Source: Candidatus Sumerlaeales bacterium (GTDB taxonomy: Bacteria > Sumerlaeota > Sumerlaeia > Sumerlaeales > Sumerlaeaceae). Taken from it: a DNA stretch of 64,000 bases. The notes under the pieces were generated by a model, which made no database searches, was not told the DNA's origin, and worked only from the letters and a program-made list of their open reading frames with translations. Shown here piece after piece: positions 22,431-39,805 of the stretch (position 1 is its first letter; the number at the start of each line of letters is the position of its first letter). The DNA lies in NCBI GenBank assembly GCA_036675025.1, contig JAKFFN010000113.1, positions 5,337 to 69,336 of the forward strand, given 5' to 3'. The position numbers were made by a program, and so were the translations under genes.

Positions 22431-24344
22431 TTACCTGGCTTTTCCGCCACCCGGTGTCTCGAAATCTTTCCATTCATTAATCCCGGTGTTGCTTTGCAGT
22501 GTACCGGGACTGCCAGCTATGGCGGCATTTGCGTTGCCAGGAGTAATGGTTCGGACGCGCCACAATCCGGAAGGTGTCAAACTACCGTCTGGTGAATTGC
22601 TTACTATCGGGAAACCCCAGTTGCCGCTGTTCGGCAGTGCCTGCGGCACACGGTGCGCCGCTCGATCCACAGCAAAATCAGCCGCGCTGCCAACCCTGTC
22701 CGGGGCAAATGCATCTATAACTAGATCGGTGCTGCTCCGGTAAATATCATAGCAGTCATTTCCATTATGAGCAATATTTAAATCGGTCCCGTCTGGTGCA
22801 AATCCAAAAGCTGTCTGGAAATCTGAACTGTTATTCGCGAGTACATAAAAATCACCTGCGTCGATGGATCCTGTCGTAAGGGCTATATTTGTGGGTGCGA
22901 AGTTGCCATTCGTAAACCGCCGCAGCGATATTCCCGACGTTGCCAGGTTGATTGTTTGTGTCGTGTTATTATACAACTCCAAGTACTTTAGGTTTCCCTG
23001 GCTGCCTTCGAACACTTCAGATATTACCAGTCCAGCAAGAGGTTCACTGGTAATACCGATCTCAAACTCGTTGCTTGCGATCGGCCCGTACGGCGCGATG
23101 TTGTCTTGCCCACCATTGGCAGACAATTCTATGCCATCATCAGAAAGAGAAACGCCGACAGTTGCACCGGCAGTGGACCAAACAGGTATATCAACTGTCA
23201 CAAGGATCGGGTTAGATCCCGTCGCAAGGTAAAAAGGGTGGCTTAATGCGAGCGAAGCTATCCCACCGGTAAATGAGCCGCTTGCCAGCCGTGAATCTTC
23301 CGGACCGACTTCTCCATCGGCGTCCACATCATACCAAAGCTCGATCTGGCTTACTTCATTATCCGCTATGGTCCCCACCTTATAAAAAGTCAACACCGCC
23401 AGGTGAACTTCCTGGCCCACGGTTTCTGTGGGGAGCCGCAGCACTGGCACATTCGCTGTACCGGCAGCAATGGTGCGCGTAGCGGGTCGATCGGCTGCGA
23501 GGGTCAACGTATTATTATCCTGCGGCGTCCAAGCCGGACCACCAAACACATCATCCACCCATTCCGGATGGTCCACAAAGGGATTCGCGTTCTGCTGATA
23601 GCGATAGGCTTTATAGTTACGCGCACGTTCTTCGGCGGTCGGTGGAAACTGCCGGTGCCAGTTCAGCAGCGTAGTTAAAAATGCCATCTGTCCGGCTCCC
23701 GTTCCACCGGGATAGGAATTAGTTACTGTAAGGTTCGGCTCGCCGTTTAATCCCTCATACCGCACATCCATGTAAAGAACGGCCCGCGCCGCCCGCCCCT
23801 TGTCCACGTCTGCCGGTTCAAATACACTGGACGTGGCTTTATTTCCGAACACATCCTGGTAAGTGGGCGCAGTAACTACATCATACGGAGAATTACTGCG
23901 TCGGCTGTTTACGTCAGTATCTGATGGGTATAGCGCATGCACATCGCTGCGCATTGGCTCATCCTGGTTAAAGAATGACTGCGGAAACATATGCTCCCGA
24001 TTCCAGCCGCCCATGGAAGGCGAGCCATCAGCATCTGTGCCGGATATCTTTGCCCGCACATCCCCACCATAGATCAGCCGCACGTGATCTGCCGATGTGG
24101 TTGCTTCGTCGATGTCGCGTAGCGGTTCCCAGGTGTTGTCATAGCCCAATTGAAGTACGCCAGCCGATAACGTGGCGTTCAGGGTACTCCGCAGTAATGA
24201 GGCTGTCGATGTGTTAACGTCGTCATAATAAGCAGGGGATAGGCCGCAGCAACCGGCGCCTGCACTAAGGCTGAGTAGTACAATGGTACCAGCACTAGCC
24301 AGATACCTCAGCGGGTTGATCTGCTTATTTGTGCTCACATTCAT
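22431..24344 (-). CDS. Secreted endonuclease I-family nuclease fused to a lamin-tail domain (LTD)
   Basis: It has a signal peptide. An Endonuclease_1 block (WNREHMFPQS) is present. The C-terminal LTD signature is LVISEVFEGSQGNLKYLELYNNT. Confidence 0.7.
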   Translation of the reverse strand: MNVSTNKQINPLRYLASAGTIVLLSLSAGAGCCGLSPAYYDDVNTSTASLLRSTLNATLSAGVLQLGYDNTWEPLRDIDEATTSADHVRLIYGGDVRAKISGTDADGSPSMGGWNREHMFPQSFFNQDEPMRSDVHALYPSDTDVNSRRSNSPYDVVTAPTYQDVFGNKATSSVFEPADVDKGRAARAVLYMDVRYEGLNGEPNLTVTNSYPGGTGAGQMAFLTTLLNWHRQFPPTAEERARNYKAYRYQQNANPFVDHPEWVDDVFGGPAWTPQDNNTLTLAADRPATRTIAAGTANVPVLRLPTETVGQEVHLAVLTFYKVGTIADNEVSQIELWYDVDADGEVGPEDSRLASGSFTGGIASLALSHPFYLATGSNPILVTVDIPVWSTAGATVGVSLSDDGIELSANGGQDNIAPYGPIASNEFEIGITSEPLAGLVISEVFEGSQGNLKYLELYNNTTQTINLATSGISLRRFTNGNFAPTNIALTTGSIDAGDFYVLANNSSDFQTAFGFAPDGTDLNIAHNGNDCYDIYRSSTDLVIDAFAPDRVGSAADFAVDRAAHRVPQALPNSGNWGFPIVSNSPDGSLTPSGLWRVRTITPGNANAAIAGSPGTLQSNTGINEWKDFETPGGGKAR

Positions 24345-25092: not shown

Positions 25093-25401
25093 GTGATGGC
25101 TTGGAGGATAGAACGGTTGTTCTATTGGCTAATGGTGATCAAGAACCCAAAAGGACGCGGCGCTGATGATAATCCCGGTAATCGCTTTGAGCGACTGCAT
25201 GTGGAACCCTATGATGAGGATCTGCTGCCGGATGACGTGACGGAAACGGTTCCGACAACGTATCTTGGAGTCGCCAGCAAGAGCGTTTTAACGACAAACG
25301 ACAGTCCGGATGTCGGCTTTCGCTACAGCGTTAACCCCTACTCAGGATGTTCCCACGCCTGCGCGTACTTTCAGTTGTTACACTGTTGCGACGGCTATTA
25401 A
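25093..25401 (+). pseudogene. Truncated radical SAM paralog (N-terminal ~100 aa only)
   Basis: It shows roughly 50% identity to the N-terminus of the intact radical SAM gene at 29166..30254 (NPKGRGADDNPGNRFE...TNDSPDVGFRYSVNPYSGC vs NPRGRGTPGNPQNRFE...KNDSPDVGFTWSINPYRGC). The CxxxCxxC cluster is degraded (CSHACAYFQ), and the frame ends right after. Confidence 0.5.
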
Positions 25402-28991: not shown

Positions 28992-29165
28992 TCAGGCATT
29001 GCCATTCGGATGAAATACCAGCACGCCTAAAAGTTCGGATGGATGGTTTAAGTCAATAGAATTATGAGGCGCGCAAATCTATGTGCGCCGAAGCTTATTG
29101 TCGTCAGCTTTGACTGCCGCGACATGGAACTTTTTTGTGCTTTTCCCTTGCGCCAAACATAGAAC

Positions 29166-30254
29166 TTGCGTTCCATTCCACTCCTGATGAACGTGCAGCC
29201 AAATCCGCGCGGGCGGGGTACCCCCGGTAACCCGCAGAACCGGTTCGAGAAGCACGCCATCGAGGTACAACTGGAGGATTTCGAGCACGAGGAGCTGCCC
29301 CCCGCGCCGGGAACCCAATTCATACCCGATCTAAGCAAGTCGATCCTGACGAAGAACGACAGCCCCGATGTCGGCTTCACCTGGAGCATCAACCCGTACC
29401 GCGGATGCGAGCATGGATGTTCCTACTGCTATGCGCGTCCGTACCATGAGTATTTGGGTATGTCTGCCGGTCTGGATTTCGAATCCAAAATTCTTGTGAA
29501 AGAGGATGCACCACAACTGCTACGAAAGGCCCTGGACCGGCCTAGCTATGAGCCAGACATCATAGCTATGAGCGGCGTGACTGACTGCTATCAGCCCGGC
29601 GAGCGGCAGTTTGAGCTGACCCGCGGATGTCTTAAGGTTCTGGCGGAGTACAAGAACCCCGCAGGTCTCATTACGAAGAACCGGCTGGTGACTCGCGACA
29701 TTGACGTGATGAGGGAGATGGCATCGTGGAACGGCATCTGCGTCCTGCTGTCAATCACAACACTCGATCCGGAAATGAGTGGTAAACTGGAGCCGCGGGC
29801 ATCCCGTCCCCAGGCGCGGCTTGATGCGATCAGTAAACTCGCCGATGCTGGCATTCCGGTTGGCGTAAATGCCGCGCCGATGATACCCGGCCTTACCGAC
29901 TCAGAATTGCCTGCCATAATAGCCGCGTCAGCGGCGGCCGGTGCCAAGTTCGCCGGCTATACCGTAGTGCGCCTGCCAGGTGCCGTACATGGAATTTTCG
30001 AAGGATGGTTAAACCGCAATTTTCCCGATGCAGCCAGTAAAGTGATGAATCGGATCCGAGACGTACACGGCGGAAATGTGAGCGACAGCCGCTTTGGCGT
30101 ACGCATGAAAGGGGAGGGAGAGTATGCTACCCAACTGCGTGGACTATTTAACGGCAGCTGCCGGAAAGCCGGCCTGACTAACGGCTTTCCAGAAATGACG
30201 ACAGAGCACTTCCGACGCCCGCAGAAGGGCCAGATGGACCTGTTCGACATTTAA
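29166..30254 (+). CDS. Radical SAM protein (SPL/COG1533-like family)
   Basis: The CEHGCSYCY cluster (CxxxCxxC) lies after a conserved N-terminal NPRGRG..NP.NRFE motif. It has a TIM-barrel-like length (362 aa). Confidence 0.75.
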   Translation: MRSIPLLMNVQPNPRGRGTPGNPQNRFEKHAIEVQLEDFEHEELPPAPGTQFIPDLSKSILTKNDSPDVGFTWSINPYRGCEHGCSYCYARPYHEYLGMSAGLDFESKILVKEDAPQLLRKALDRPSYEPDIIAMSGVTDCYQPGERQFELTRGCLKVLAEYKNPAGLITKNRLVTRDIDVMREMASWNGICVLLSITTLDPEMSGKLEPRASRPQARLDAISKLADAGIPVGVNAAPMIPGLTDSELPAIIAASAAAGAKFAGYTVVRLPGAVHGIFEGWLNRNFPDAASKVMNRIRDVHGGNVSDSRFGVRMKGEGEYATQLRGLFNGSCRKAGLTNGFPEMTTEHFRRPQKGQMDLFDI

Positions 30255-30326: not shown

Positions 30327-32465
30327 ATGTATCGTTGGACTGTTACCCCGGCTTTTCTGTCAGTATTTCTTTGTTTTAATGTGATGGCTGGAGGTTCCGC
30401 ACAAACCAGCCAGACGTCAAAACTTTCCAACTTCGATTACACTGGGGTTCGTCTACTTGATAGCCATTGGAAAGACCAGCAGCAGGATGTAATTGAGTAC
30501 TACCTCTCGATTCCTACGGATAACTATCTCATTGGTTTTCGTAAACGTGCAGGCAAGCCGGCGCCGGGTACTGAACTGGGCGGCTGGTACTCAGAAGATC
30601 GGTTTAACTCCTTCGGGCAGATACTCTCCGGTTTGGCGCGATTCCATGCGGCAACTGGGGATACAAAGGTAAAATCCAAAGTCGATGAGATGGTGGCGGG
30701 ATTCGTCGAATGTATCGAGCCTGACGGATACCATTTTTACTCGCGCAACTGCAACGCTCCCCACTACGAGTTCGATAAATTTCTCGGTGGCCTTATTGAC
30801 GCCAATTTGTACTGCGATAATGCTATAGCCCGTCAGGCCATCTCGCCGATTACAGACTGGGCGATCCAGAATCTGGACCCAAGTCCAAAGTACCCACAAC
30901 TTCCCGGCCAGGCTAACGTAGAAGGTTACACTCTCACTGAGAACTTGTACAGGGCATACATCCTTACCGGTGACCAGAAGTATCGGGATTTTGGAAAGCA
31001 TTGGGAGTATTGGGGATGGTGGGATAAGTTCATCACTAAGTCCCCGGTGGATCTTTACATCCAGCCTGATGGCAACAAGATGCCTCACTACCACGCTTAC
31101 AGCCATGTAAATTCGCTTGGCGGCCTGGCCACCGGATATACGGTAACGCAAGATGACAAGTACCTGGATAGACTGATAAACTCCTATGATGTTACCAGGA
31201 AAAATCAGGCTTATGTAACAGGGGGTTATGGCCCAATGGAGCGATATACACATCGCACCGCCCTGGAAAAGGCAATCGATTATTCTAACCGTCACTTTGA
31301 AACTCAGTGTGGTTCGTGGGCTGTCTTTAAACTTTCAAAGTACCTGCAGACATTTACAGCAGACGGCCGCTACGCCGATTGGGCGGAGCAGATGATATAC
31401 AACGGCATTGGTGGCAGCATCAATATGGACGCCGGGGGAAAAGTCCAGTATTTCAGTAACTATTCATCTCGCGGCGCGAAGAAGATTAACATTAATCCGT
31501 GGTCTTGCTGCACTGGCACCCGGCCCCAGGCGGTCGCCGATTATGTTGATCAAATTTATTACAAAGACGGATCAGATCTCTATGTAAGTCTGTTCCTGCC
31601 ATCGCAAGTCTCGTGGCAAGTAGATAGCAGTACTGCAACTTTAAAAATGGAAACCGCATTTCCAGCAGAAGAACGCGTTCGCATGGTCATAGACCATGGT
31701 CCGTCAACATCGTTTACGATTAACGTACGCCGGCCATCCTGGCTGGCTGGAGATGCACAGTTCACCGTTAATGGAGAATCAATAGCAACAAGCATTTCCG
31801 CCAGCAACTGGTACCCAATCTCCAGGAGTTGGAGTAGCGGTGACGTCCTGGAATTTAACCTGCCTATGAAGCCCGAATGGAAACCGTTCAATCCTGAAAA
31901 TCCATTTCCTGGGGCAGTAACTTACGGTCCGGTGGCCCTCGCCTGGCTTTCTTCTTCAGATAATCCGTCCGAAGGCCGAACACCGGAGCAACTAATCAAT
32001 GCGCTGCAAAGGAGTACCGGCCAGTTTTCCTGGAGCGTTAATGATAGCCCGTCTACTATAGTTAAGCCCTGGTATATGGTGGGCCCTGAAGAAAAATATC
32101 ATCTGTACCTGGATCCAAAAACCGGGCAGTACGTTGATCTCGGAAATGGATGGCGAACCAATGAAATCCACATGATTTCTGATCTTCCGAAATCCGAAGC
32201 AACTTTCTCTTTTGAAGGCACGGGCGTCCGTTTCCATTACTCCCGGTTTGATGATGCCGGAATTGCCAAGGTCCTGGTCGATGGTAAAGAAGTTGCGCTT
32301 ATAGACCAATATGCACCAGGGCGAAACATTGATGCTCATCGTGATATTACAGAGCTACCTGATGGCAAACACACGCTCGCTGTTATTTGTAGTGGTGAGA
32401 AGAATCCCGCTTCAAAGGCACGAGTGATAAATATTAAGCGGTTTGAAGTTCTTAACGGCAGTTAA
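30327..32465 (+). CDS. Glycoside hydrolase family 127-like (DUF1680; β-L-arabinofuranosidase-type), secreted
   Basis: It has a signal peptide. It has the GH127/HypBA1-like length and blocks. The conserved Cys cluster region (CCTG...) is retained. Confidence 0.7.
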   Translation: MYRWTVTPAFLSVFLCFNVMAGGSAQTSQTSKLSNFDYTGVRLLDSHWKDQQQDVIEYYLSIPTDNYLIGFRKRAGKPAPGTELGGWYSEDRFNSFGQILSGLARFHAATGDTKVKSKVDEMVAGFVECIEPDGYHFYSRNCNAPHYEFDKFLGGLIDANLYCDNAIARQAISPITDWAIQNLDPSPKYPQLPGQANVEGYTLTENLYRAYILTGDQKYRDFGKHWEYWGWWDKFITKSPVDLYIQPDGNKMPHYHAYSHVNSLGGLATGYTVTQDDKYLDRLINSYDVTRKNQAYVTGGYGPMERYTHRTALEKAIDYSNRHFETQCGSWAVFKLSKYLQTFTADGRYADWAEQMIYNGIGGSINMDAGGKVQYFSNYSSRGAKKININPWSCCTGTRPQAVADYVDQIYYKDGSDLYVSLFLPSQVSWQVDSSTATLKMETAFPAEERVRMVIDHGPSTSFTINVRRPSWLAGDAQFTVNGESIATSISASNWYPISRSWSSGDVLEFNLPMKPEWKPFNPENPFPGAVTYGPVALAWLSSSDNPSEGRTPEQLINALQRSTGQFSWSVNDSPSTIVKPWYMVGPEEKYHLYLDPKTGQYVDLGNGWRTNEIHMISDLPKSEATFSFEGTGVRFHYSRFDDAGIAKVLVDGKEVALIDQYAPGRNIDAHRDITELPDGKHTLAVICSGEKNPASKARVINIKRFEVLNGS

Positions 32466-32478
32466 GGCGCGGGGTTAG

Positions 32479-33150
32479 CTATGCACGCTGACGCACAGGT
32501 ATCTTGTAGATTTGCCCATCTGCAATACCATAAACCTTATCGCCCGCCTTTGGCTTTACGCTAGCCGTGCCAGTAAATCCGCCGAAAGCTGGCAGCAATG
32601 CCCACCCCAGCGAAAAGAGAAAACATGGCAGACGCATCGCGTGGCCAACACTGTCATACAGTTTAATCGATGGATGAACATGCCCTGATAGCACGAACAG
32701 CCCCGCCTGCTCACACGGCTCGTGGCAGTAAAGAAACGGCCCGTCCTGAATGGGGCGCCTGGAAAACTCAATATCCCAATGCGCAGGCGGCTCATTGCTA
32801 CTGCGGTCGTGATTACCCATAACAATAGTCACGGCTACAGAGGCATGCTGTACGCGCCAGGTCTCCAGCATGTCCATGGTGCGGTCGCATTGTCCGGTAC
32901 GATGATGAAAGAAGTCACCCAGTACGATCAGGCGTTCGGCCTGAGTAATACTCAGCAAATTTGTCACTCGGTTGAGGTCATTAGCTGTGGTACCTGCAGG
33001 AACAGGCACACCCGCCTGTCGAAATGCTGAAGGCTTGCCAAAATGTGGGTCTGCGATAAGCAGGGTCTTTCGGGCCGGCCAGAACAATGCACGGTCTGCC
33101 AGCAATTGAAGCTCTTCTCCAGCCCACTTACACATAGCGGTCGTTGTCAT
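32479..33150 (-). CDS. pdeM: Ligase-associated DNA damage response metallophosphoesterase PdeM
   Basis: It has calcineurin-like motifs ([22 protein letters not shown]). The start is at an internal Met (MTTTAMCKW). Its start overlaps the ynfA stop (ATGA). Confidence 0.8.
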
Positions 33151-33485
33151 GAACGCGGCGCCAGTACTATTATTGCCGTACCCATCAGTATCACCGTAAG
33201 TCCTGCCAAATCCCAACGGTCGGGTCGAATACCTTCCACCACCCACAGCCATACCACGGCTACCGACACATAAACGCCGCCATAGGCTGCGTAGGTGCGA
33301 CCCGCCGCTGCGGGGTGCAGCGTCAGCAGCCAGGCGAACAGTGCAAGCGACATTGCTGCCGGAACAAGCAGCCACGCTGAGCGCCCCTGCTTAAGCCACA
33401 GATAGGGCAGGAAACAGCCAACAATTTCGGCGACAGCCGTTGCGGCGAAAAGCCCGTATGTCTGAAGAAGGCGCATCATTGACAA
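33147..33485 (-). CDS. ynfA: YnfA/UPF0060-family small membrane protein
   Basis: It is 112 aa with 4 TM helices and typical YnfA sequence ([12 protein letters not shown]...YAAYGGVYV). It is inserted between the helicase and pdeM genes. Confidence 0.8.
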
Positions 33486-33507
33486 CTGCTACACGAAAAC
33501 CCTGCGA

Positions 33508-36015
33508 TCAATCGGTACTCATGTCCTCTTCAGCCATGATTTCAAGCTGAGACACCATCCGTTTGATCCTGTCGGCGTAGCTTTCGCTCGAAACGTGAGC
33601 TGTTGCACTCGCCATTCGACTTGCCCATAGGGGGAAAGCCAGTGGCGTAAACCTTGTCACACGGATAAGGCGAAGCTGTGTCTCCTGCAGGCGTCTCAGC
33701 GCCTCTCCCAGACGAACTACCTCCATTTGCCGTTCCATCACTTCGCGCCGTGCCTGGTCAAGCAGCAGGTTTTCCGGATCGTACTTGTTAAAAACATCAA
33801 AAAGCAGGCTGGTAGAAGATTGCACCTGCCTGGCAACTTTAGGTGCACCCGGGTAGCCTGTAAATATAAGTCCCGCCACCCGCGCCACCTCGCGAAACTG
33901 TCGTTTTGCCAGTTCGGTCGCATTAATTGACGCAAACAGATCATCCAGCAGCCGGTCCGGCGAAAGGATCTGGCGCCACGCCTTCTCATCCATTTTCAAA
34001 TCGATAGGCTCATGGCTCAAGAGTTCAAACCCATAGTCGTTCATGGTCACGCCGATTGTGCGCGGGTTCAACTGGGAGACTCTCCAGGCAACCAGGCCGC
34101 CAAGCCCTTCATGCACGAAGTGCCCTTCGAAGGGGTACAGGAAAACGTGGTAGCCCTCCCGGCTGCGTATGAACTCAATAAGCAGTTCATCCTTTGCCGG
34201 TATTACTGACCAGTGTGCCTGGATATCCAGCACCGGTTTTACCTTTTCCATCTCAGGCCCCTCGAAGTTCCCATGCCGTGCATCATCCAGTTTATCACGC
34301 ACTGCCTGGCCTAACTGGCTGGTAATGGGCATGCGGCTTCCGCCCCAGGTCGGCAGCGCGCCGCTCTGCTTCTCTGCGAACTTTACCGTCGCCGTCATTT
34401 CCTTAAGGCGCACCAGTTCAAGCAGCCGGCCCGCAAATACGAAGCAGTCGCCGTTCTTCAGTTTCGCCAGGAAGTTCTCTTCCACTGTGCCCAGGATGCC
34501 GCCGCCCTGCAGCTTTAAGGCGATGTTCATATCTGATGTAATTGTGCCGATATTAAGGCGATGAAGCTTCGCCATCTTATCACTGGAAATTGCCCAGCGG
34601 TTATCGTACTTATGAACCTTCTTGAACTGGTCGTAAGCTCGCAGCGCCTGCCCGCCATGGCTCAGGAAATCAATTACCCAATCCCATTCCTGCCGAGTCA
34701 GTTTTCGGTAAGACCATGCCTTACGCACTTCATCAAAAAGCTGCTCTTCGTCAAAACCTTCGCCGGCGGCGAGGGTCACTACGTGCTGAGTCAGCACGTC
34801 AATCGGGCGATCCGGAGGAATCCGCAGTTCTATCCGGCCCGCCTCGGCGGCGTCGCGGGTTGCAGAATACTCCACCAGTTCAAACGCGTTAGTGGGCACG
34901 CAGAGCACCCGGCTCACGCCCCCCGGCTGGTGACCACTGCGCCCCGCGCGCTGAAGCAGGCGCGCCACGCCCTTAGGGCTGCCGATCTGGATCACCTGGT
35001 CCACAGTGGGAAAATCTACACCAAGATCCAGGCTCGACGTACACACTACGCACTTGATCACGCCTGTGCGCAGGCCGTCTTCCACAGTCTCCCTGATCTC
35101 CCGGTCCAGTGAACCGTGGTGCAGAGCCATTCTGTCCTTCCAGCGCGGTCCAGCTTTCATGATCGATTGATACCAGAGCTCTGCCTGGGATCGCGTGTTA
35201 GTAAAAACCAGGGTCGTCTTTGCCCCGGAAATAGCTTTAACAACATCAGGAAGCAACCGCAGCCCGATGTGACCAGACCACGGAAACCGTTCGATGTTCT
35301 CCGGCAGCATGGTCACGATTTCGGTGATCTTGTCGTTCTCTGCGCGAATCAAAACTTTGTCACGCCTGCCTGTAGCCGTAAGTACATCCAAGGCCATGTC
35401 CAGGTTCCCAAGTGTTGCGCTAAGGCCCCAGATCCGCATGTCCGGCAGCCACGTCCTCAACCGCGCCAGGGCCAACTCCGTCTGGGTGCCCCGCTTATTG
35501 CCCAGGAGTTCATGCCACTCGTCCACAACAACGGCTTTCACAGTACCCAGCAGCTCACGCGTGTTGTCGTAAGTCAGCAGCACCGAAAGGCTTTCGGGCG
35601 TCGTCACCAGTGCCGTAGGAAGCTTCGTTTTCTGACGCGCCTTCCGTGATGCCGACGTATCACCTGTTCGTTTTTCCAGCGTCCAGGGCATGCCAAGGCC
35701 TTCGATTGGTGCACGCAGCGCCGAAAGCGTATCGTTGGCAAGAGCGCGTAGGGGAGTGATCCACAGCACTTGGGTCGGCGCTGGATCTTTCAGGTTCCAT
35801 TGCATCTTATCGGGATTGTCAGCCAGCCACTGCGATACCGGACCCAACCACACAGAGTATGTCTTTCCCATGCCTGTGGGCGCGTTTACCAGTCCATCCG
35901 CGCCTTCGGCAAAAGCAGCCCATGCTTCCTGTTGAAACTCGAACGGCTGCCAGCGCTTTCGCCTGAACCATTTCGCCAGTTCCGGGTGCAGGGTATCTGT
36001 TGTGGCCGTTGTCAT
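33508..36015 (-). CDS. Ligase-associated DEXH-box helicase (Lhr-core type)
   Basis: It has a Walker A (APTGMGKT), DEWH, SATLGN and a helicase C domain plus Lhr-specific C-terminal domains. Its start overlaps the ligase stop. Confidence 0.85.
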   Translation of the reverse strand: MTTATTDTLHPELAKWFRRKRWQPFEFQQEAWAAFAEGADGLVNAPTGMGKTYSVWLGPVSQWLADNPDKMQWNLKDPAPTQVLWITPLRALANDTLSALRAPIEGLGMPWTLEKRTGDTSASRKARQKTKLPTALVTTPESLSVLLTYDNTRELLGTVKAVVVDEWHELLGNKRGTQTELALARLRTWLPDMRIWGLSATLGNLDMALDVLTATGRRDKVLIRAENDKITEIVTMLPENIERFPWSGHIGLRLLPDVVKAISGAKTTLVFTNTRSQAELWYQSIMKAGPRWKDRMALHHGSLDREIRETVEDGLRTGVIKCVVCTSSLDLGVDFPTVDQVIQIGSPKGVARLLQRAGRSGHQPGGVSRVLCVPTNAFELVEYSATRDAAEAGRIELRIPPDRPIDVLTQHVVTLAAGEGFDEEQLFDEVRKAWSYRKLTRQEWDWVIDFLSHGGQALRAYDQFKKVHKYDNRWAISSDKMAKLHRLNIGTITSDMNIALKLQGGGILGTVEENFLAKLKNGDCFVFAGRLLELVRLKEMTATVKFAEKQSGALPTWGGSRMPITSQLGQAVRDKLDDARHGNFEGPEMEKVKPVLDIQAHWSVIPAKDELLIEFIRSREGYHVFLYPFEGHFVHEGLGGLVAWRVSQLNPRTIGVTMNDYGFELLSHEPIDLKMDEKAWRQILSPDRLLDDLFASINATELAKRQFREVARVAGLIFTGYPGAPKVARQVQSSTSLLFDVFNKYDPENLLLDQARREVMERQMEVVRLGEALRRLQETQLRLIRVTRFTPLAFPLWASRMASATAHVSSESYADRIKRMVSQLEIMAEEDMSTD

Positions 36016-37610
36016 TTATTGTGGAGCTCCAACAGGTCGTAAACAAGCTCCAGCGTATCGGCCTGGTCGGCCGGTTTATCTTTCCGCCACCGCTGAATGC
36101 GTGGGAATCTTACTGCAATGCCCGACTTGTTACGTGTGCTTGGTTGAAGACCCTCAAAGGCCAGTTCAAAAACCAGCTCCGGCTTTACCATGCGCACAGG
36201 TCCGAACTTTTCCAGCGTATTCTTTCGAACCCAGGCATCCACTTCTTTAATCTCGGAATCGGTAAGTCCGCTGTAAGCCTTTGCCACAGTAATGAGTTCA
36301 TCACCGCGCCAAACCCCAAATGTGTAATCGGTAAACAAACCAGCCCGCCGTCCACTGCCCGGCTGTGCGTACGTCAGCACGGCGTCCATCGTGTATGGAT
36401 CTACCTTCCACTTCCACCAGTCACCCTTTACGCGACCGGCGCGGTACGGAGAATCCAGCTTCTTCAGCATCAGACCTTCAGTACGATTTTCACGCGATAG
36501 CTGCCGGTGGTTCGCCAGTTCCTGCCAGCTTTCGGCGTTTACCAGCGGCGAAACATAAAGAGAGCTGTCTGGTTCCTGGTCACGCAAAAGTGACTCCAAT
36601 GCCCGGCGACGCTCCGCCAAGGGCCATTCGCGTATATCTTCGCCCTCCAACTCCATTATGTCATACGCCATAAATGCAGTCGGCGTGTCTTTTAAAATTT
36701 TAGGGGTCACAGCCTTTCGTGTAATTCGCGATTGCAGGTCCTGAAACGGTGCCGGCCGATCCACATCCCACGCCAGAATCTCACCATCCAATACGGTTCC
36801 ATCAGGTAGCGACGCTGCCGCGTCACGGATTTCCGGGAACCGGTCGGTCAGCAAATCTTCACCCCTCGACCATATGATCACCTGTCCCTGTCGACAAATT
36901 ACCTGGCTGCGGATCCCGTCCCATTTCCACTCCGCCTGGTAATGCGCCGCACTTTCCTGCTCCAGGAACTCCGTCGGCAGGGGATTAGCCAGGAAAAACG
37001 GAAATGGCTTCGCGGGATTTTCTTCCATTATCGCCGGTTCTGCCAGTCCCAGCATAGAAGTCGCAGTCGGTTCCCAGTTGCCCATCAGGCGGTGCGCCAT
37101 CACCGCAGGCTCCGCATCGTGCAGTTGGGCTAGCGCCTTTACCACAAGGGTTTTAGAAACACCTACGCGAAAAGCCCCTGTGATCAACTTGTTCCAGACG
37201 AATCGCTGATTGCAGTCCATGCGTTGCCATAACTCAATAACTGCCTTGCGTCGTTCCTCCTCAGGCATGGCTCTCAGTTTCAGCAGGTAGTCGTGCACAA
37301 GGCGATGGAGTGGAATTTCCATGGGAACTGGATTATCTGGGAGCAGCAGCGCGATTGTCTCCGCAAGGTCGCCCACATTGTGATAGCATTCGTCAACCAG
37401 CCAGTCCGGCAGTCCGGCAGCCTCGCCAACCCAACGCCGCAGCAGCGGGCTATTTACTGCGCGCTGCACTTTGGCACCCATTAAAAAATAAACAGCCCAC
37501 GCCGCATCTTCCGGCGGCGCATCTGCGAAATACTTTCGCAAGGCTTCGAGTTTTTCATTGGTCCGATTTGTGGCATCCAGGTCCATGTACAGGCGGGTAA
37601 ACTGCTGCAT
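36012..37610 (-). CDS. ATP-dependent DNA ligase (ligase-associated damage-response family)
   Basis: It has the KxDG adenylation motif (EWKWDGIRSQ) and nucleotidyltransferase and OB domains. It overlaps both neighbours. Confidence 0.9.
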   Translation of the reverse strand: MQQFTRLYMDLDATNRTNEKLEALRKYFADAPPEDAAWAVYFLMGAKVQRAVNSPLLRRWVGEAAGLPDWLVDECYHNVGDLAETIALLLPDNPVPMEIPLHRLVHDYLLKLRAMPEEERRKAVIELWQRMDCNQRFVWNKLITGAFRVGVSKTLVVKALAQLHDAEPAVMAHRLMGNWEPTATSMLGLAEPAIMEENPAKPFPFFLANPLPTEFLEQESAAHYQAEWKWDGIRSQVICRQGQVIIWSRGEDLLTDRFPEIRDAAASLPDGTVLDGEILAWDVDRPAPFQDLQSRITRKAVTPKILKDTPTAFMAYDIMELEGEDIREWPLAERRRALESLLRDQEPDSSLYVSPLVNAESWQELANHRQLSRENRTEGLMLKKLDSPYRAGRVKGDWWKWKVDPYTMDAVLTYAQPGSGRRAGLFTDYTFGVWRGDELITVAKAYSGLTDSEIKEVDAWVRKNTLEKFGPVRMVKPELVFELAFEGLQPSTRNKSGIAVRFPRIQRWRKDKPADQADTLELVYDLLELHNK

Positions 37611-38674
37611 CAGTCGCCCGCCTGCTCATCTGACTCAAATGACTGATCCACAGCCTGCTCCGCACCCTCCTCGGCTTCTGCAGCCAGTGTCTCACCCGTA
37701 TAGCGCGTAGGTACGTTGAATGCCTCTACGCGTCCCTGTTCATTAAGGAAGCGCACAAGCGGGTCAATGTGTCCATGTGTCACGCCCACGCGCTGCGCCC
37801 CCGTCGCCTCAATAGCCTCCATCAGCCCTGGCCAGTCGGCGTGATCAGACAAGATAAACCCGCGGTCCAGCGCGTTACGCCGGCGGGCTCCGCGCACTGC
37901 CATCCAGCCCGACGCAAACGCCAGCGAGGCCGGACCAAATTTCTTAAGCCACGGGCTGCCCGCGGCCGAAGGCGGCGCAATAATTAAAGCGCGCCCTTTT
38001 GCATCCTTAGAATTTTCAAGACTCGCTTTCTCTGCAAGCGGCAGGTTAATACCGGCGTCTTTATAAAGCGGCAGAAATGGGCTCACCGCCCCATGTACGA
38101 AAATGGGTCCGATAGAAGAATCAATACCTCCCAGCACCCGCTGCGCTTTTCCCAGGGAGTAGGCGAACACCACTGAAACCCGTCCCTTCTCACGGTTTCC
38201 ACTCCACCAGTTATTAATTGAGCTCATTATATCTTCTTGTGGCGACCAACGGTAAATCGGCAGGCCAAAAGTACTTTCAGTAATGAACGTGTGGCATCGC
38301 ACCGGCTCAAACGGCGTACAGGTTTTATCCGGCGTCGTCTTGTAATCCCCACTGAAAACCCATACCTCACCCTCATGCTCCAGGCGAACTTGCGAGCTAC
38401 CCAAAATATGGCCAGCTGGATGCAGCGATACCTTTACGCCATTGATAATCCGGGTCTCTCCATAAGGGATGGACTCAATATTTGCATCCGGACTCACCCG
38501 CACAGCCAACACCTGGTGACCTTCCTTGCTTGTCAGGTAAGATTTACATCCCCACCGGGCATGGTCGGTATGGGCATGCGTCACAATGGCACGCTCTACC
38601 GGGCGCCAGGGGTCCAGGTAAAAATCTCCGGCTTTGCAATACAGGCCACGATCGGTTGGTTGGATGAGAGTCAC
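37610..38674 (-). CDS. Ligase-associated metallo-β-lactamase/β-CASP exonuclease
   Basis: It has an HxHxDH motif (THAHTDHARWG) and β-CASP motifs. It is the first gene of the minus-strand operon. Confidence 0.85.
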   Translation of the reverse strand: MTLIQPTDRGLYCKAGDFYLDPWRPVERAIVTHAHTDHARWGCKSYLTSKEGHQVLAVRVSPDANIESIPYGETRIINGVKVSLHPAGHILGSSQVRLEHEGEVWVFSGDYKTTPDKTCTPFEPVRCHTFITESTFGLPIYRWSPQEDIMSSINNWWSGNREKGRVSVVFAYSLGKAQRVLGGIDSSIGPIFVHGAVSPFLPLYKDAGINLPLAEKASLENSKDAKGRALIIAPPSAAGSPWLKKFGPASLAFASGWMAVRGARRRNALDRGFILSDHADWPGLMEAIEATGAQRVGVTHGHIDPLVRFLNEQGRVEAFNVPTRYTGETLAAEAEEGAEQAVDQSFESDEQAGD

Positions 38675-38797
38675 GCTTTGAACTTATGTTCTACCCAAAT
38701 TTGTTCTCGAACTTCACCGGTAAGAGCGTACCGCGTGCCGGTTGGTCCGGATGTTTTTCAGTTGTACTGCGTGAGAGTGTCGTATAGGTAAGGCGCC

Positions 38798-39805
38798 ATG
38801 CTTCAGTTCATCTTAAAGCGCCTCGCCGTGGCCCTGCCATTGGCCCTCGGTGCGTCCTTTATCACGTTCAGCATCCTGTACTTCGTTCCCGGCGATCCCG
38901 TAGTCACAATGCTCGGCGACAAGGCTAATGACGCTGCCCTGGTTGCCAAAATGCGGGAAGAGCTTGGCCTAAACGATCCGTTTCTAGTGCGTTACGGCCG
39001 GTTTCTCAAGGGCCTCGTTGCCGGTGATCTTGGCAACAGCTTCGTTTCCAACCGCCCTGTTGTGGAAGAACTGACCGACGCACTTCCGGCCACCATTGAA
39101 TTGGCCATGTGTGGCCTGATCATCGCCTGTTGCATCGGTCTGGTTTCGGGAGTCGTATCAGCCGTTCGCCAGTACAGCGCCTGGGACTACAGCTTTATGG
39201 TCATCGCCCTGGTGGGTGTATCTATTCCCGTGTTCTGGCTGGCGCTCCTGCTAAGTTACTTCTTCGCTTTTAAATACCCCTGGTTCGACATGGCCGGCCG
39301 CATGAGCCAGCAATACTCGGATTTCGTTCCAATCACAGGACTGATGCTCATTGATAGCATACTGACTCTTGACTGGGAGGTGTTTCTCGATGTGCTTCGC
39401 CATATCACACTCCCGGCAGTCACACTTGGTCTAATAGGGTCTGCTCTTATTGCGCGAATGACTCGAAGCAGCGTGCTGGAAGTAAAAAACCGCGACTTCA
39501 TACGCACCGCCCGTGCAAAAGGTTTATCCTCTCGCCAGGTGTTGTGGCATGTGTTGCGAAACGCCATGCTTCCAGTGGTGACGGTTGTCGGGCTGCAGTT
39601 TGGCGCGTTGTTAGGCGGCGCAATCATTACGGAAGAAATCTTTGCCTGGCCCGGCCTCGGTACCTATCTCGTGCAGGCGATCCGCTACCGCGACATTGTG
39701 GCCGTGCAAGGTGCCGTAATGGTCATCGTGATCATGTTTCTCGTGGTGAACCTCGGCGTGGATGTTCTCTATGCCGTAATTGATCCGCGCACTAACGAGG
39801 GCTGA
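38798..39805 (+). CDS. ABC transporter permease, OppB/DppB type (orphan)
   Basis: It has 6 TM helices and a BPD_transp_1 EAA-like loop (IRTARAKGLSSRQV). No cognate OppC, ATPase or substrate-binding protein gene is adjacent. Confidence 0.85.
   Translation: MLQFILKRLAVALPLALGASFITFSILYFVPGDPVVTMLGDKANDAALVAKMREELGLNDPFLVRYGRFLKGLVAGDLGNSFVSNRPVVEELTDALPATIELAMCGLIIACCIGLVSGVVSAVRQYSAWDYSFMVIALVGVSIPVFWLALLLSYFFAFKYPWFDMAGRMSQQYSDFVPITGLMLIDSILTLDWEVFLDVLRHITLPAVTLGLIGSALIARMTRSSVLEVKNRDFIRTARAKGLSSRQVLWHVLRNAMLPVVTVVGLQFGALLGGAIITEEIFAWPGLGTYLVQAIRYRDIVAVQGAVMVIVIMFLVVNLGVDVLYAVIDPRTNEG

Follow-up and report, generated by a model that had tools for sequence, protein, structure and literature searches.

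A ynfA gene embedded in the ligase-associated DNA damage response operon of a Candidatus Sumerlaeales lineage, most likely as a co-transcribed passenger

The 64,000-nucleotide stretch of Candidatus Sumerlaeales bacterium analysed here (assembly GCA_036675025.1, contig JAKFFN010000113.1; hereafter the window, in whose numbering positions are given unless another locus is named) carries on its minus strand, from 38674 to 32479, five co-directional open reading frames (ORFs) in the order Exo, ligase, Lhr-core, YnfA and PdeM. Four of these make up the cluster known in NCBIfam as the 'ligase-associated DNA damage response' cassette (TIGR04120-04123), while the fifth, ynfA, is a UPF0060 family gene that lies between the helicase and the metallophosphoesterase (MPE). 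The embedded ynfA is a genuine, conserved and lineage-specific variant of a known operon, and not a new system. The genes were assigned to families by Pfam and NCBIfam profile searches against curated bit-score cut-offs, with the following results:

37610..38674, minus strand: exo, ligase-associated DNA damage response exonuclease of the metallo-beta-lactamase/beta-CASP type, 354 amino acids, GTG start (TIGR04122, 470.6 bits against a cut-off of 325)
36012..37610, minus strand: ATP-dependent DNA ligase, 532 amino acids (TIGR04120, 628.7 against 400)
33508..36015, minus strand: Lhr-core DEXH helicase, 835 amino acids (TIGR04121, 1091.2 against 850)
33480..33507, minus strand: lhr-ynfA spacer, 28 nucleotides
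33147..33479, minus strand: ynfA (UPF0060), 110 amino acids (PF02694, 124.6 against 24.9; NF002586, 156.5 against 114)
32479..33150, minus strand: PdeM/MPE metallophosphoesterase of the single-strand DNA endonuclease family, 223 amino acids (TIGR04123, 218.7 against 150)

All four repair proteins exceed the curated cut-offs of the cassette equivalog models TIGR04120-04123, and the binuclear metallophosphoesterase site is intact. The exonuclease translation carries the HxHxDH motif, as VTHAHTDH, the ligase also scores 714.9 bits against the PRK09247 cut-off of 543 and comprises the Pfam N, adenylation and C domains, and the Lhr-core protein incorporates DEAD, Helicase_C, WH_Lhr and DEAD_assoc domains. 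In PdeM the residues D34, H36, D79, H82, N113, H114, H157 and H159 are present, all of which are invariant across 37 homologues. His81 and His113 are essential for the nuclease activity of the Pseudomonas putida MPE, and H82 and H114 of the window PdeM probably correspond to these, as judged by position rather than by direct alignment to that protein. Each of the four repair genes is an intact representative of its family in the canonical Exo-Lig-Lhr-core-PdeM operon, and an initial annotation of this DNA made from its letters alone (the sequence-only reading) was right in identifying the cassette, with regard to all four families as well as gene order and strand.

The same reading had adjacent genes overlapping by one to four nucleotides at every junction, which is correct for three of them. 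At the exo/lig junction (TGATG) the ligase start and exo stop share one nucleotide, while four nucleotides are shared by the lhr start and ligase stop (ATGA) and by the pdeM ATG and ynfA stop (ATGA). At the lhr/ynfA junction there is instead a 28-nucleotide gap and no overlap, with the lhr stop at 33510-33508 and the ynfA ATG at 33479. YnfA had been taken as a 112-amino acid protein starting from a TTG at 33485; this start has to be revised, as the orthologs in two related loci (L172 and L174) begin at the equivalent ATG, giving 110 amino acids.

As far as PMC7826289 describes P. putida's nucleic acid repair gene cluster, Exo-Lig-Lhr-Core-MPE (Ejaz and Shuman 2018), the window cluster comprises the same four families in the same order, with tight co-directional packing and conserved metallophosphoesterase active-site residues, and its Lhr-core is likewise about 835 amino acids in length, without the long C-terminal extension of full-length Lhr. 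It differs in the presence of the fifth gene, ynfA, between Lhr-core and MPE/PdeM, in the coupling of pdeM to ynfA rather than to lhr, and in a GAAC-N4-GTTC operator-like box before exo. The P. putida cluster, as described in that text, includes no membrane component, and neither 'ynfA' nor 'membrane' is mentioned in it.

The rarity of the pairing was gauged with two context scans. The PdeM alignment was scanned against one genome per species and the best 80 of at least approximately 600 candidate loci were examined; these belong to the Verrucomicrobiota, Planctomycetota, Chloroflexota, Gemmatimonadota, Proteobacteria, Bacteroidota and other taxa, all from genomes other than that of the window. 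In the reverse direction, the window YnfA was compared with metagenome contigs, and the best 80 of at least approximately 600 candidates (63-75 % identity) were retained. The 10 kb around pdeM yielded no ynfA in the PdeM loci (0/80; tblastn, even at E = 10), and in the metagenomic YnfA loci none of the four repair genes came as close as 5 kb to YnfA (0/80). Among the PdeM loci, lhr is situated immediately 5' of pdeM in 53/80, with a median gap of about 18 nucleotides, while unrelated genes intervene between lhr and pdeM in 15/80 and no lhr is located upstream in 12/80. A literature search yielded no paper naming ynfA together with Lhr. Within these samples, the insertion of ynfA in the cassette is rare and confined to one narrow, poorly sampled lineage, and the view that ynfA is foreign to the described cassette is borne out by the comparison with other genomes.

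In two Burkholderiales loci (L036, 7384-8061, and L048, 7586-8131), a multi-pass membrane protein of approximately 180-225 amino acids is encoded 3' of lhr-core on the same strand. By appearance, and without a domain search, this protein looks Yip1-like. A short-chain-dehydrogenase-like ORF and an opposite-strand ORF of about 271 amino acids (families unchecked) then precede pdeM.

Among the close relatives, a ynfA gene overlapping pdeM by four nucleotides is found in five distinct lineages, the window included. These are represented by L001 (identical to the window), L172/L173 (YnfA 94 % identical), L174 (YnfA 80 %, Lhr 87 %), L085 (PdeM 78 %) and L086 (PdeM 73 %, with pdeM starting at a TTG). 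The lhr-ynfA spacer measures 28-29 nucleotides in all three lineages where the contigs reach the ynfA 5' end, those of L085 and L086 being too short. A survey of other genomes for the insertion, as had been advised in the sequence-only reading, shows that it is not common in many genomes among the loci sampled, and equally that it is not a one-off, since five diverged lineages have it. In the relatives without ynfA (L082/L083, L084, L087, L168/L169 and L170) lhr and pdeM overlap by eight nucleotides, and the proteins of these sister lineages are 75-80 % (Lhr) and 57-65 % (PdeM) identical to those of the window. From these arrangements, translation of pdeM seems to rely on coupling to whichever ORF precedes it, through the eight-nucleotide overlap with lhr in the sisters and the four-nucleotide overlap with ynfA here.

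The embedded ynfA copies share 66-72 % nucleotide identity, with a ratio of non-synonymous to synonymous substitution rates (dN/dS) of about 0.03-0.06 and a dS above 1, on the basis of which ynfA is considered to be old at the lhr/pdeM junction and under strong purifying selection. In a neighbour-joining tree the embedded proteins are mutual nearest neighbours, and a single gain of ynfA in the ancestor of the subclade is the most parsimonious reading. The G+C content at third codon positions of ynfA (0.595) falls within the range of its neighbours (0.536-0.640), and composition is therefore uninformative on horizontal transfer. The sequence ATGAGT in the 3' end of lhr was considered as a possible leftover of the former pdeM start and dropped, as it aligns with the relatives as ordinary coding sequence. 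In general, the cassette tolerates rearrangement in this family, and L168 and L170 contain lhr and pdeM only.

Several further features of the cassette and its surroundings were observed in the window and its relatives. The lhr (36015-35998, minus strand) and pdeM (33150-33133, minus strand) genes of the window open almost alike, with ATGACAACGGCCAC and ATGACAACGACCGC, respectively (MTTA and MTTT); this is probably due to chance, as the pdeM N-termini differ in L172, L174, L085 and L086. In L082 (GCA_038243585.1; 2397-7445) four genes are located between the ligase and Lhr-core genes, including an oppositely oriented Ion_trans_2/TrkA potassium channel gene and a HGLS-family gene, and the cassette is therefore interrupted at another junction. 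In L082 and L084 pdeM has the PA0069/SplB-family radical SAM gene as its immediate convergent neighbour, whereas in the window the two are separated by a convergent GH127 beta-L-arabinofuranosidase-like gene (30327-32465, plus strand), which ends 13 nucleotides from the pdeM stop and represents another local insertion. A full-length pdeM (56 % identical, tblastn) is discernible 77 nucleotides past lhr in L171 (5463-6202), where the stored gene calls give just a 144-amino acid opposite-strand ORF; a miscalled gene or a disrupted locus could explain this. A serine recombinase and a ParB-like gene adjoin the radical SAM genes of L171.

The window YnfA shares 70-77 % identity with homologues from Pseudomonas/Stutzerimonas, Nitrosospira, Methylophilus and Myxococcus, and retains all family-invariant residues, with the helix-1 Glu18 invariant in 53 sequences. 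Its AlphaFold (AF2) model (pLDDT 86.7) comprises helices at residues 2-31, 35-54, 59-82 and 88-106, joined by loops of 3-5 residues, and the top seven Foldseek matches in the PDB are all EmrE or Gdx-Clo, at query-normalised TM-scores of 0.50-0.69 and weak E-values of 0.015-0.66. As modelled, YnfA is a typical full-length four-helix protein similar to the small multidrug resistance (SMR) family, without a soluble domain. It shares the full-length match, four helices, helix-1 glutamate and predicted EmrE/Gdx-like fold with the YnfA/UPF0060 small membrane proteins of the SMR superfamily, which include YnfA of Escherichia coli and Shigella as well as the products of UPF0060 genes for thallium resistance from Cupriavidus, Sphingomonas and Pseudomonas. 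On the basis of transposon fitness data, UPF0060 has been proposed as a thallium(I) efflux pump (bioRxiv 10.1101/072470), while Shigella cells that lose YnfA are sensitised to ethidium and acriflavine, both of which intercalate into DNA (PMC9295541). The same-strand neighbours of the 80 YnfA homologues include GAPDH, ArsH-like FMN reductase, CDF, MerR, HMA and P-type ATPase genes, with no repair gene among them. Considering these gene neighbourhoods, YnfA looks like a mobile accessory detoxification gene, often appended to operons. While the known and sampled YnfA genes either stand alone or belong to operons for resistance to metals and arsenic, the window ynfA is located inside a DNA-repair operon. 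The closest YnfA from outside the clade (L175, 1784-5327; 76 % identical) ends an ArsR-ArsC-ArsR-ArsC-Acr3-dual-specificity-phosphatase operon, in which ynfA shares four nucleotides with its upstream gene; a Toprim/DUF3987 primase gene adjoins this operon, which suggests a mobile element.

Promoter-like and terminator-like sites in the region 32000-39200 occur at the frequency found in shuffled sequence (promoter-like sites: four found, 4.2 expected). The lhr-ynfA spacer contains neither a terminator nor a promoter match, and its predicted fold is no better than that of shuffled sequences (z = 0.22). The five genes are probably transcribed as one unit from a promoter upstream of exo. A separate ynfA transcript, which the sequence-only reading had named as a finding that would count against it, is thus not suggested by either the spacer, with no terminator-like structure, or the promoter-like sites, with their chance frequency.

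A candidate regulatory site precedes the operon, and recurs in the window before two sequences of a single radical SAM family:

38680..38693, minus strand: candidate LexA/SOS operator TAGAACATAAGTTC, a GAAC-N4-GTTC palindrome 5 nucleotides upstream of the exo start
29186-30254, plus strand: PA0069/SplB-family radical SAM gene (NF033668, 467.8 bits)
25093-25401, plus strand: truncated N-terminal PA0069-like radical SAM fragment (NPKGRGA...NRFE...NPYSGCSHACAYF, then a stop)

The GAAC-N4-GTTC palindrome occurs five times in the window against 0.91 expected, and TAGAAC-N4-GTTC, with one mismatch allowed, eleven times against 2.15 expected. The exact TAGAAC-N4-GTTC box is found in three places in the window, 5' of exo and of the two radical SAM sequences; these count as four matches because the site at 25109 is palindromic and matches on both strands. 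At 29160-29173 the exact box (TAGAACTTGCGTTC) is situated 12 nucleotides 5' of the likely ATG (29186) of the radical SAM gene, whose listed start, a TTG at 29166, probably lies too far upstream, while 25109-25124 forms a perfect 16-nucleotide palindrome (TAGAACGGTTGTTCTA) before the truncated copy, which appears to be a pseudogene. The box is also kept in relatives, 5' of exo in L084 and at the radical SAM starts in L083, L084 and L171. In several phyla the LexA motif is GAAC-N4-GTTC, and splB (COG1533) is found widely as an SOS gene (PMC4951493). Furthermore, PA0069 is among the 15 SOS genes of P. aeruginosa. The palindrome is of the same type as in the LexA regulons of the Firmicutes, Actinobacteria and Gallionellales, and the SplB/PA0069-family gene, a frequent LexA-regulon member, here has the same palindrome immediately upstream as the repair operon. 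No lexA gene is encoded within the window. Given that the box stands before both exo and the SplB/PA0069 genes, is kept in relatives and is of a known LexA motif type, we infer that the operon is probably LexA-repressed through the candidate TAGAAC-N4-GTTC box, and that its induction would extend to ynfA. The assignment of an Lhr-core cassette to a GAAC-N4-GTTC operator is proposed here, the cassette not being a regulon member in the LexA literature cited.

A megablast comparison of the whole locus against plasmids gave no match, and an Rfam scan of the window identified one tRNA only, with none near the operon. Elsewhere in the window (22431-24344, minus strand) a 637-amino acid protein is encoded that carries both an Endonuclease I and a lamin-tail domain and is likely a secreted or surface nuclease.

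The embedded ynfA is most likely a co-transcribed passenger. We put at roughly 60 % the probability that a lone, ancient insertion brought a mobile detoxification gene into a canonical repair operon, where it is co-transcribed and coupled to pdeM while its product acts independently of repair. The ancestor of one narrow lineage would have gained a single ynfA by insertion at the lhr/pdeM junction, whereby pdeM translation, once coupled to lhr, would have become coupled to ynfA. The insertion would have been tolerated because this coupling was re-created, and ynfA would have persisted through a benefit that YnfA provides by itself. YnfA would be an SMR-type exporter acting alone in the membrane on a toxic cation, for which family evidence points to Tl(I), ethidium and acriflavine, and gene context to arsenic and metal detoxification, and it would not form a subunit of the repair machinery. 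Its placement would be a historical accident, with the expression of an exporter alongside the DNA-damage response as a side effect. The sequence-only reading had offered a hitch-hiker as one of its two explanations, and this one fits the absence of ynfA from the 80 cassette loci and of cassette genes from the 80 YnfA loci, the presence of the nearest YnfA homologues in arsenic and metal operons, and the other insertions within the cassettes of relatives. Three points nevertheless tell against a passenger of single origin. The retention of the same position and overlap past synonymous saturation also fits a selected functional link to repair, the monophyly of the three full-length embedded YnfAs is weak (71/200 bootstraps), as the protein is short and highly conserved, and both context scans are samples rather than censuses, in which rare independent recurrences could be missed.

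A functional link could take the form of 'expel and repair', the main rival reading, in which YnfA would export a cationic or metal genotoxin, the four enzymes would repair the DNA lesions that it causes, and ynfA would have been recruited and retained for joint induction of efflux and repair by damage. This is possible, though not probable. That five lineages, past the point of synonymous saturation, keep ynfA at this position and with the four-nucleotide coupling, under strong purifying selection, would be accounted for, as would the candidate SOS operator upstream of the operon; purifying selection on ynfA is, however, expected whatever its neighbours. The sensitisation of Shigella to intercalators on loss of YnfA (PMC9295541) and the connection of UPF0060 with thallium resistance are in keeping with such a substrate, and NCBIfam names the cassette ligase 'cisplatin damage response', cisplatin being a metal-based genotoxin. 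The link would nevertheless have to have arisen without recurrence, given that the pairing occurs in none of the sampled cassette or YnfA loci, where the YnfA homologues keep company with arsenic and metal detoxification genes and never with repair genes, and in nearly all lineages, the sisters included, the cassette functions in the absence of YnfA. That cassette and YnfA constitute one SOS-controlled unit, in which YnfA pumps out a cationic or soft-metal genotoxin and the cassette processes the lesions it causes, is rather unlikely. Expulsion coupled to repair would be a more interesting outcome than a passenger gene and, if true, the YnfA substrate would indicate the natural damage that the cassette evolved to handle.

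Two other explanations differ in where they place ynfA relative to the operon. If ynfA were an independent transcription unit with a promoter in the lhr 3' end, it would have no functional part in the operon, and the lhr/ynfA junction is indeed the sole one in the cluster with a real gap (28 nucleotides), with a weak promoter-like match (9 of 12) within lhr at 33864-33836. Promoter-like sites are, however, at chance frequency in this region, no terminator-like structure follows lhr, and pdeM, which overlaps the ynfA stop, lacks a separate start region, so that a transcript has to pass through ynfA to reach pdeM; an internal promoter would add to upstream read-through and not replace it. An independent unit is thus quite unlikely. 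A role for YnfA as a structural partner of the repair complex, holding Lhr-core and PdeM physically at the inner membrane, is highly improbable. This was the other explanation offered in the sequence-only reading, and gene adjacency and the translational coupling with pdeM are the only grounds for it. The predicted four membrane helices with loops of 3-5 residues would leave no soluble domain or surface to hold a cytosolic complex. YnfA is 70-77 % identical to members from unrelated contexts, and no lineage-specific interaction surface is therefore evident, while Pfam and NCBIfam searches identified no added domains in PdeM and Lhr-core of the ynfA-bearing lineage.

A conserved extra partner could hint at the physiological role of the Exo-Lig-Lhr-core-PdeM cassette. 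The confinement of ynfA to a small lineage, and its appearance as a captured detoxification gene, limit what it says on the cassette in general. For this group, the candidate LexA box provides a testable handle on the regulation of the cassette and, if the box is real, an SMR-type exporter would stand under DNA-damage control.

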